Source of the DNA: Candidatus Marinacidobacterales bacterium
GTDB taxonomy: Bacteria; Acidobacteriota; Vicinamibacteria; Marinacidobacterales; DATDRI01
Direction of reading: 5' to 3'
Assembly: GCA_965219415.1 (NCBI GenBank)
Contig: CBDCNP010000002.1
Span: 1,728,001 to 1,792,000 of the forward strand
Length of the DNA: 64,000 nucleotides
Translations under genes and position numbers: made by a program
Shown here: positions 7,275 through 8,483 of the stretch, in pieces
Layout of the letters: the number at the start of each line of letters is the position of its first letter
Numbering within the stretch: the stretch's first letter is position 1
Notes under the pieces: model-generated
Database searches by the model: none
Told to the model about the DNA's origin: nothing
Seen by the model: the letters and a program-made list of their open reading frames with translations, nothing else

Positions 7275-7314
7275 TCAATCGAAGCTGGCTTCCCTCCTTT
7301 AATCCCTTGTATCT

Positions 7315-7495
7315 TGAAGCTCGCTTCAGGAGGCATTAGTTTTTGAGCGGGTGGCAGCTCGATAAATCCCTGGGTACCGCGAAGAGACCGTGGGAGGGCG
7401 TGGGCGCCACCCGCCCAATAGCGATTATCAGCCCGAACAGTTGCTAGGGGCCCTAACCCCGCATTTTGCAAGGATGGGCGAGAATCGCTGAGAAG
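7315..7495 (+). ncRNA. IS110 bridge RNA (target-binding and donor-binding loops)
   Basis: Stem GCGGGTGGC/GCCACCCGC (7347-7355/7406-7414) encloses TAAATCCCT and GGGAGGG; stem AGCGATT/AATCGCT (7420-7426/7483-7489) encloses ACAGTTGCT and TGCAAG; these segments match the target and donor junctions. Confidence 0.85.
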
Positions 7496-7510
7496 ATACG
7501 GGGACAAACG

Positions 7511-8473
7511 ATGGCCAAGAAAGAGATATATGTGGGTATCGACGTATCGAAAGCGACGTTGGACGTCAGTGTTCGTCCAACGGGAGAGCGCTGGCAGTTG
7601 ATGAATGACGAAGGCGGCATCAGCGAGTTGGTGGGCCGTCTTGAAGCCCTTTCGCCGAGCTTGGTGGTAGTGGAAGCCACCGGTGGTCTGGAACGAGCCT
7701 TGACAGCTGCGGTGGCGGCCCAAGGTCAACCGGTGGTGGTTGTGAACCCCCGTCAAGTTCGTGAGTTTGCCCGTTCGACCAGACGATTGGCGAAAACGGA
7801 CCGCATTGATGCCGATGTTTCTGGCGCTGTTTGGTGAGCGGGTCCGGCCCGAGCCTCGTGGTCTTCCTGACGAGATGCTGCGGGGCCTCGAGGCCATGGC
7901 GATACGCAGGCGTCAGCTGCAGCAGATATGTTGACGGCGGAGAAGAATCGCCTCGGCACAGCGACCCCTGCGGTCCGTGATGGTATCCGTAAGCACATCG
8001 AGTGGCTGCAAAAACAGGTGAAAGATGTGGACCGAGACACGGGGCAACTCATTAAAGAGAGTCCCGTCTGGCGGGCGAAAGATTACCTGCTGCGAAGCGC
8101 GCCGGGAGTGGGTTCGGTGCTCAGCCACACGCTCATCGCCAAGTTGCCGGAGCTTGGGACTCTGGGAAGAAAGCAAATTGCTGCGTTGGTTGGAATCGCC
8201 CCGATGGCTCGCAACAGCGGGACGCTTCGCGGCAAGCGCACCGTCTGGGGTGGACGTTCCTCGGTTCGCGGCGTCCTCTATCTGGGAACTCTGGTTGCGA
8301 CGCGACATAATCCGGTAATCCGAGATTTCTATCGGCGACTCATAGCCAGTGGGAAAGCGCCCAAAGTCGCCCTTACAGCTTGCATGCGGAAGTTCCTGAT
8401 CATTCTCAACGCTATGATACGGACTCAAACTTATTGGAATCCGCAACCGATGGATTCTGCTATTGACATTTAA
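7511..8473 (+). pseudogene. IS110 DEDD recombinase, two frameshifts (~7818, ~7922)
   Basis: [24 protein letters not shown], catalytic Ser in RNSG; reading frame broken twice. Confidence 0.88.
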
Positions 8474-8483
8474 GACAGTTGCT

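Follow-up and report, generated by a model that had tools for sequence, protein, structure and literature searches.

The stretch of DNA analysed here (the window) comprises 64,000 nucleotides (nt), positions 1,728,001 to 1,792,000 of contig CBDCNP010000002.1 in the assembly GCA_965219415.1 of a Candidatus Marinacidobacterales bacterium, and all of the positions given below are counted from its first letter. An insertion sequence (IS) of the IS110 group, with a CT core at each end, was found at 7306-8483, inside a repeat resembling the repetitive extragenic palindromic (REP) sequences; the parts of the element and of the repeat described below lie on the plus strand. The left core occupies 7306-7307 and the right core 8482-8483. 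As read directly, the flanks are TTAATCC on the left (7299-7305) and CTCCC on the right (8484-8488), while the element itself starts with TGTATCT (from 7308) and finishes with ACAGTTG (8475-8481), the left donor half-site, which together with the right copy of the core makes up the right end at 8475-8483. No inverted repeats are formed by the TGTATCT and ACAGTTG ends, and the duplication of the target is limited to the core, with two CT in the occupied site and one in its paralogues. Between the cores lie a noncoding left end of 203 nt (7308-7510), a broken recombinase gene (7511-8473) and a right end of 10 nt past the stop codon (8474-8483). Since the right end is only 10 nt long and the RNA is encoded in the left end, the element was placed in the IS110 group and not in IS1111.

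The interrupted repeat consists of a left shoulder at 7288-7305, whose last 7 nt are the left target half-site, and a remainder at 8484-8565, whose first 5 nt are the right target half-site; both outer limits are approximate, and the alignment of the paralogues begins about 18 nt to the left of the core. Where the repeat is uninterrupted, its copies in the rest of the genome have the sequence ...TTAATCC-CT-CTCCCTTCCGCC... (C1:334414, C1:821082 and C3:2745467), that is, both flanks of the window joined by a single CT at the place of the left core, and the boundaries are thereby confirmed independently of the guides. A preliminary description, made from the sequence alone, had bounded the element by CT and reconstructed its empty target, and these paralogues reproduced the predicted empty site exactly. 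Within the 8.05-Mb genome there are 28 occurrences of the word CTCTCCC.?TTCCGCC, and one paralogue used as a blastn query gave 33 further matches with a common unit of about 100-115 nt. Five of these units folded with energies of -62 to -69 kcal/mol, compared with -40 to -50 kcal/mol (sd about 4) for shuffled sequences, and the CT core was located at the 5' base of the long hairpin stem. Therefore, as a palindromic dispersed repeat with a strong hairpin and the core at its 5' base, the target is a REP-like hairpin; the same proposal in the preliminary description was borne out by the paralogous repeats and their folds.

The noncoding left end corresponds to a bridge RNA gene (7308-7510) composed of a 5' hairpin (7308-7335), a target-binding loop module (7343-7418), a donor-binding loop module (7419-7490) and a weak ribosome-binding site. 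In the first module a basal stem is formed by 7347-7360 with 7403-7414 and an inner stem-loop lies at about 7372-7389; in the second, conserved stems pair 7431-7434 with 7476-7479 and 7447-7450 with 7457-7460. The fold of the 205 nt from 7308 reached -80.6 kcal/mol (z -2.69, equalled by 1 of 200 shuffles) and placed the guide strings within or next to the internal loops of two stem/internal-loop/stem modules. The left target guide (LTG), TAAATCC followed by CT (TAAATCCCT, 7363-7371), is identical in 8 of 9 positions, and in the same sense, to the top strand of the left target plus core. The right target guide (RTG), GGGAG followed by GG (7392-7398), is complementary to CT+CTCCC with seven pairs, one of them G:T. 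In the second loop, the left donor guide (LDG), ACAGTTG followed by CT (ACAGTTGCT, 7437-7445), is identical in 9 of 9 positions to the right end at 8475-8483, and the right donor guide (RDG), TGCAAG (7467-7472), pairs with CT+TGTA of the left end through six pairs, again with one G:T. By our own arithmetic, a 9-mer matching the right end in all nine positions would be expected by chance about 7e-4 times in the approximately 190 positions of the left end. All of the strings and coordinates previously reported for the element were present on direct reading, and the four guide matches were recovered as described there.

The recombinase, which combines a DEDD RuvC-like domain, a coiled coil and a Tnp domain, is encoded in three reading pieces, with 7511-7837 and 7928-8473 in the same frame and 7761-7934 in the +1 frame. 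Alignment with intact homologues of 318-320 amino acids (aa) set the positions of the two breaks: one extra base in the T-run at 7818-7820, which shifts the frame from 0 to +1, and two extra bases at the ATAT at 7926-7929, where the frame is regained. The first piece (7511-7837) matched PF01548 (DEDD_Tnp_IS110) with an E value of 3.1e-19 and the last (7928-8473) matched PF02371 (Transposase_20) with 2.7e-15. The read-through product, with X at the breaks, was 91.5% identical to the intact homologue P0001, which scored 208.7 bits (cut-off 140) on the NCBIfam model NF033542, a family whose name, 'IS110 family RNA-guided transposase', already includes the term 'RNA-guided'. Among solved structures, P0001 matched the transposases of ISCro4 (E 3.5e-41) and IS621 (E 2e-39). 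The scan of metagenomes with P0001 detected no relative above 60% identity, and the closest proteins, P0001-P0003, come from short contigs. The family-invariant residues D11, E55, D97, D100, S235 and G236 are retained in the reading pieces of the window (motifs GIDV, EATGG, KTDRIDA and NSG); judging from motif context and the alignment to ISCro4, they would be equivalent to D11, E60, D102, D105, S241 and G242 reported for IS621 (PMC11208158). The window departs from 3 of the 82 invariant columns, by G91R (7781), D234N (8213) and M257L (8282). A single open frame of 318-320 codons, unshifted, was observed in all 23 of the aligned full-length homologues, and an autonomous element requires such an uninterrupted frame, which the window copy does not have. 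Because of the two frameshifts, the window copy is a member of the family by descent but a pseudogene.

The element is present as a single copy in its own genome, as seen both by DNA search and by tblastn of the three reading pieces at E 1e-5, which gave self matches only; the search for other genomic copies, foreseen as a check in the preliminary description, was thus run and returned this copy alone. No copy was found in a DNA search of 40 relatives. The same genome contains 1711 CT+CTCCC sites, 10 of which match the LTG at 6 of 7 positions (four of these in the long form of the repeat), and all 10 are vacant. Contigs from two sequencing runs of two studies, X1 (depth 10.3) and X2 (depth 8.9), showed 0 differences and 0 gaps with respect to the window across the element, so the frameshifts are considered real. 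A different allele was detected in two other public runs. Record 25 of run X6 spans 7006-8783 with the same flanks, and its frame is open because a single base is absent at 7818 and two bases are absent at 7926; run X11 is alike. In this allele 7397 is changed from G to A, so that AG again stands opposite the core, and the change 7781 A>G returns Arg to the invariant Gly; the allele differs further by 7319 G>A and the synonymous 8062 T>C. As the X6/X11 allele restores the frame, the A of the RTG and the invariant Gly, four of the six differences within the element are degenerative in the window lineage. Position 7397 is G in the window and A in 59 of 65 family loci; the G:T pair of loop 1 is thus a lesion of the window lineage, and that of loop 2 is a family trait. 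D234N and M257L are common to both alleles. The window copy is dead, with two frameshifts, G91R, the A>G change in the RTG and no sister copy to supply recombinase, and the insertion is older than the split from the X6 and X11 strains, which share the locus without the four lesions. The recombinase had earlier been described as carrying two frameshifts that look repairable; both are present, but this view was too simple, since G91R and the altered RTG are present as well.

These data also bear on the possibility that the element is intact and active and that its frameshifts are assembly or sequencing errors. The first shift does fall in a short T-run, the +1 and +2 insertions add up to +3 so that the frame is regained after about 105 nt, and an assembly of only three contigs suggests long reads. 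Nevertheless, the contigs of X1 and X2 reproduce the window, those of X6 and X11 differ from it at exactly these places, and the lineage with the shifts is the one with G91R and the A>G change in the RTG. The element has, moreover, remained at one copy despite the 10 vacant sites with six of the seven left-target bases followed by CT and CTCCC. An active element in the window is therefore improbable.

To compare the window with its family, one genome per species was scanned; 534 related stretches were obtained and the best 80 loci, with 55-65% protein identity, were kept. Their hosts belong to Dehalococcoidia, Gemmatimonadota, Nitrospirota, Methylomirabilota, Acidobacteriota and others. The upstream regions of 74 of these 80 loci were aligned with the window, leaving out L050, L051 and L064 (motif pattern missed) and three loci with <200 nt upstream. 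CT+TGTATCT was the start of nearly all of the aligned upstream regions, and the start CT+T(G/A)TAT was found in 70 of the 74 homologous loci, the aberrant ones being L039, L065, L090 and L096. Likewise, AAGACAGTTG+CT was the right end of nearly all family loci. In L105, beyond the right end, CT+TGTATCGCC resembles another left-end start, which could correspond to a tandem or nested copy or to a solo end.

For the RNA structure, the aberrant L039, L048, L065 and L090 and exact duplicates were removed, leaving 60 sequences. In the consensus structure, 96.7% of the cells were paired, compared with 86.9% after shuffling (reached in 0 of 500 trials) and 37-48% with slid partners. Compensatory changes were detected in 17 of the 26 consensus pairs; the stems carry them and the loops do not, and at five positions of the basal stem of the target module 13-29 compensatory sequences each were counted. 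A covariance model made from this alignment, R1, gave a full-length match immediately upstream of the open reading frame in 40 of 49 held-out metagenome loci, with protein identities as low as about 35-40%; L152-L154, L161 and L162, which have no upstream DNA, were left out of this search. By contrast, R1 gave no match in 14 other IS110 loci of the same genome (0/14). On the window itself R1 matched 7340-7492 with 100.4 bits, a score for a sequence that belonged to the training set. The Rfam scan of 7000-8800 (E<=1) detected no bridge-RNA family, only a sub-threshold chance match on the neighbouring repeat. The fold of the left end into two internal loops, as originally described, and its covariation among homologues are both supported by these results.

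The target guides were then compared with the flanks of their own locus and with those of other loci; 16 of the 75 loci were left out of the first guide test, with the right end missing, flanks short or containing N, or an aberrant left end. In a fixed register, RTG pairing at positions +1 to +5 was 85-92% for own loci and 25-43% across loci, and was no higher than background at +6 (window included, 65 loci with 48 unique RTGs). Under the same scheme, LTG identity at -5 to -1 was 59-91% for own loci and 27-68% across loci (66 loci); these figures are underestimates, because the register is off by one in about 14 loci. When the best offset was allowed, the LTG scored 4.85 of 7 for own and 3.78 for cross-locus flanks, a weak contrast because the choice of best offset inflates the control. 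An LTG test that demanded CT in the loop was dropped, having mis-scored loci with CC, CG or TA after the guide. Among the held-out loci, the right-end motif was found in 27 of 40; 5/5 pairing was obtained in 20 of these 27, with a mean of 4.52 for own and 1.71 for cross-locus flanks, although the anchoring looks wrong in at least L128 and L155, which are included in these counts. Therefore, the guides covary with the flanks across homologues (the window and 58-65 homologous loci, and the held-out set), as the preliminary description had anticipated for a bridge RNA. As a separate observation, L041 shows a match of 13 nt between its left flank and the loop together with the adjoining stem, which is longer than the guide.

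The donor guides were near-invariant, and the rare variants ACAGGTG, ACAGTCG and ACAGCTG co-change in the LDG and in the right end (L036-038, L059/074/086/108/111 and L045). The loci were also found to keep two positions at which each loop can reach the other partner, the handshake reported for IS621 (PMC11208158; PMC13626964), which the family pattern matches. The donor-loop base can pair with target position -1 in 69 of 69 loci, and the target-loop base with donor position -1 in 62 of 64. The base after GCAAG is A only with a target T before the core (7/7); a G there is accompanied by C (56) or T (6). The base after the RTG is a C facing the donor G in 62 of 64 loci. In the window, the C at 7399 can pair with the donor G at 8481, and the G at 7473 with the target C at 7305.

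Could the guide matches be coincidental, or arise from shared repeats and ends, with the left end being a 5' untranslated region and the protein choosing the target? Where the donor guides are concerned, conservation alone is indistinguishable from pairing, since they are almost invariant. However, even there the rare variants co-change, and the variable target guides, with their 48 unique RTGs, track their own flanks, stay near background across loci and stop pairing after +5. The confinement of compensatory changes to the stems points the same way, and RNA is required in the IS621 biochemistry (PMC11208160). Coincidence is thus a very improbable account of the matches.

Additionally, a putative promoter was identified that would be assembled only in a circular form of the element. 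TTGACA (8463-8468), its -35 half, lies within the last codons of the gene, and TATCTT (7310-7315), its -10 half, is completed only across the circle junction; TTGACA-17 nt-TATCTT lines up when the right end is joined to the left end, as judged from sequence alone. The same arrangement, TTGAC[A/T/G]-17 nt-TAT.., was found in 41 of 64 loci, with an 18-nt spacer in 4 more, other spacings in 3 and no TTGAC in 16. No sigma-70-like site was found in the linear DNA at 7100-8650. A junction promoter has been reported for IS621 and its relatives (PMC11208160), and the arrangement here is the same.

Taken together, 7306-8483 very probably represents one inactivated copy of an IS110-group, IS621-like element that was mobile by bridge-RNA-guided recombination. 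The anatomy, the matches between guides and flanks, the covariation in the family, the empty site and the decay are direct observations, whereas for transcription, circle formation and catalysis the biochemistry of IS621 serves as the guide. By this analogy, a working copy would excise as a circle; joining of the right end to the left end would create the TTGACA-17-TATCTT promoter across the CT core, from which a left-end RNA of about 170-190 nt would be transcribed. The first loop (LTG 7363-7371, RTG 7392-7398) would pair with both strands of a (T)AATCC-CT-CTCCC target at the 5' base of the repeat hairpin, and the second (LDG 7437-7445, RDG 7467-7472) with the circle junction ACAGTTG-CT-TGTA. 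A recombinase tetramer, using the DEDD and Ser residues, would then exchange strands at the CT core.

Several observations weigh against this reading or narrow it. The LTG of the window has one mismatch, at position -6, and in the family the LTG signal is weak at -6/-7 (27-30% own and 23-27% cross-locus). In a model-free alignment, the inner stem of the target loop shows a G-A mismatch in the window unless the register is moved by one. With one copy in the genome, the target preference here rests on one insertion together with the family covariation. The contigs of runs X1, X2, X6 and X11 contained neither a circle junction nor an empty site of the same strain. The assembly may itself derive from X1 or from X2, in which case only one of them is independent support for the frameshifts. 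Finally, D234N and M257L affect family-invariant columns in the X6/X11 allele too, so even this 'intact' allele may be impaired.

The least credible alternative is that programmed ribosomal frameshifting allows the broken gene to be expressed, an idea that the compensating shifts (+1 and +2 bases) and the slippery-looking T-run at the first of them might invite, but the 23 aligned homologues and the X6/X11 allele are unshifted single frames and the segment in the +1 frame belongs to the normal conserved protein. Within the interpretation as a decayed bridge-RNA element, a further proposal concerns the hairpin of the REP-like repeat, which might itself take part in target recognition for the clade as a gate of sequence plus structure, like the one proposed for ISPpu10; this is regarded as speculative and rather unlikely. 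If it were true, the widespread and compact clade, with proteins of 318-320 aa, near-invariant donor ends and a strict 5-nt right target, would represent a distinct, usable set of bridge recombinases whose hosts are uncultured phyla of soil and groundwater, for which the X6/X11 allele could be a natural working reference.

The IS621-type architecture attributed to the element at the outset is supported by the protein domains, the two-module RNA, the strand rule of the guides and the REP-like target. With IS621 of Escherichia coli (PDB 8wt6) it shares the domain order, the CT core, the lack of terminal inverted repeats, a long left end whose RNA has its target-binding loop ahead of its donor-binding loop, and the junction promoter. 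The guides of the window follow the strand rule published for IS621 (PMC11208160, PMC11208158), whose natural target is reported to lie inside a REP palindrome (ATCAGGCCTAC; PMC11208160) and whose LTG likewise tolerates one mismatch with that natural target. The proteins, however, are distant (phmmer E 2e-39 over P0001 residues 5-304). The native RTG of IS621 is reported to have 4 nt, extendable to 7, whereas the right target has 5 nt across the clade of the window, and the target word here is another, AATCC-CT-CTCCC; moreover, the host repeat of the window is a palindrome of about 100-115 nt from an unrelated bacterium, and the window copy is a pseudogene. ISCro4 (PDB 9t56), compared here by protein alone, was the best solved-structure match of P0001 (residues 6-304) and keeps the motifs GIDVSK, KTD.(I/V)DA and (D/E)SG, but belongs to a different clade. 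ISPpu10 and ISPpu9 of Pseudomonas putida, also IS110-family elements, are described as inserting in one conserved multi-copy intergenic stem-loop/REP sequence, and in the ISPpu10 preprint the target hairpin is proposed to add specificity; in the window, too, the core lies beside a strong hairpin, at its 5' base, a resemblance taken from the descriptions of these elements. The IS1111 group has the same recombinase family and RNA-guided logic (PMC11208160), but differs in having its RNA in the right end and sub-terminal inverted repeats, the RNA of the window element being in the left end.

Bridge RNAs have been predicted in 85.7% of IS110-group elements (PMC11208160). The kind of element is thus already known and broadly catalogued, and no new mechanism is involved. 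Particular to this case are its target word, a right half-site of strictly 5 nt throughout the clade, the repeat of its host and the natural existence of both an intact and a decayed allele. All four guides can be read from the DNA, as can the two handshake positions, the promoter at the junction and the empty site, and the locus is in this respect a clean worked example. In the clade, with hundreds of loci, the covariation between guide and target is strong enough for predicting targets from the RNA alone, and the intact and decayed alleles at one locus show an element that died in place, guide RNA included. In an annotation, the locus should appear as an IS110-family pseudogene that retains the remnant of a bridge RNA and lies in a REP-like repeat, with uvrA on one side and a rhomboid protease gene on the other.

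Regarding the surroundings, the gene of the rhomboid-family protease (6316-7062) and uvrA (8566-11415; NF001503, 1458 bits) flank the insertion, both on the minus strand. The central hairpin of the interrupted repeat follows directly after the stop codon of uvrA and could act as its terminator. A second palindromic repeat, with arms TGTCCCTCTCCCCTTCCGCC... and ...GGCGAAGGCGGGTTGGGGAGAGGGA, was found at 7155-7276, just left of the insertion. It holds another CT+CTCCC site, where the match to the LTG is limited to the three left-target bases nearest the core, and it was the place of the sub-threshold chance match in Rfam (Antizyme_FSE, 20.8 bits with a threshold of 40). The left shoulder TGGCTTCCTTCCTT(T/A)AA(T/A)CC followed by CTCTCCC is common to the form of about 110 nt and to a variant with a short hairpin (CTCTCCC, 3-5 nt, GGGAGAGGG), as seen for example at C3:4102814, C3:1196478 and C1:920423, and for this reason the repeats are considered to form a superfamily. 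Read as its reverse complement, the shoulder resembles a ribosome-binding site (AAGGAAGGAAGCCA).

In run X6, a second contig (record 26, depth 2, with 12-13 other letters) does not contain 7275-8569; it passes from 7274 to 8570 through 9 other letters. Both the IS and the repeat unit are missing from it. It was read as a more distant strain, not as an excision product, and suggests that related strains differ in having or lacking the repeat unit itself.

The genome is also rich in other IS110-family elements, with 53 PF01548 matches (for example C3:2961670-2962089, L027). Since tblastn with the reading pieces gave self matches only, the other 52 belong to other subfamilies, and about 30 of the 53 form a single one with a 361-aa frame. 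Two copies of that subfamily (L022 and L023), which were among the 14 other IS110 loci searched, gave no match with R1; any RNA that they have is therefore of a different type. Twelve copies of it were examined: most start with GGTGCTTCCGCC and end with GTTGCTAC, and two classes of sequence recur among their right flanks.

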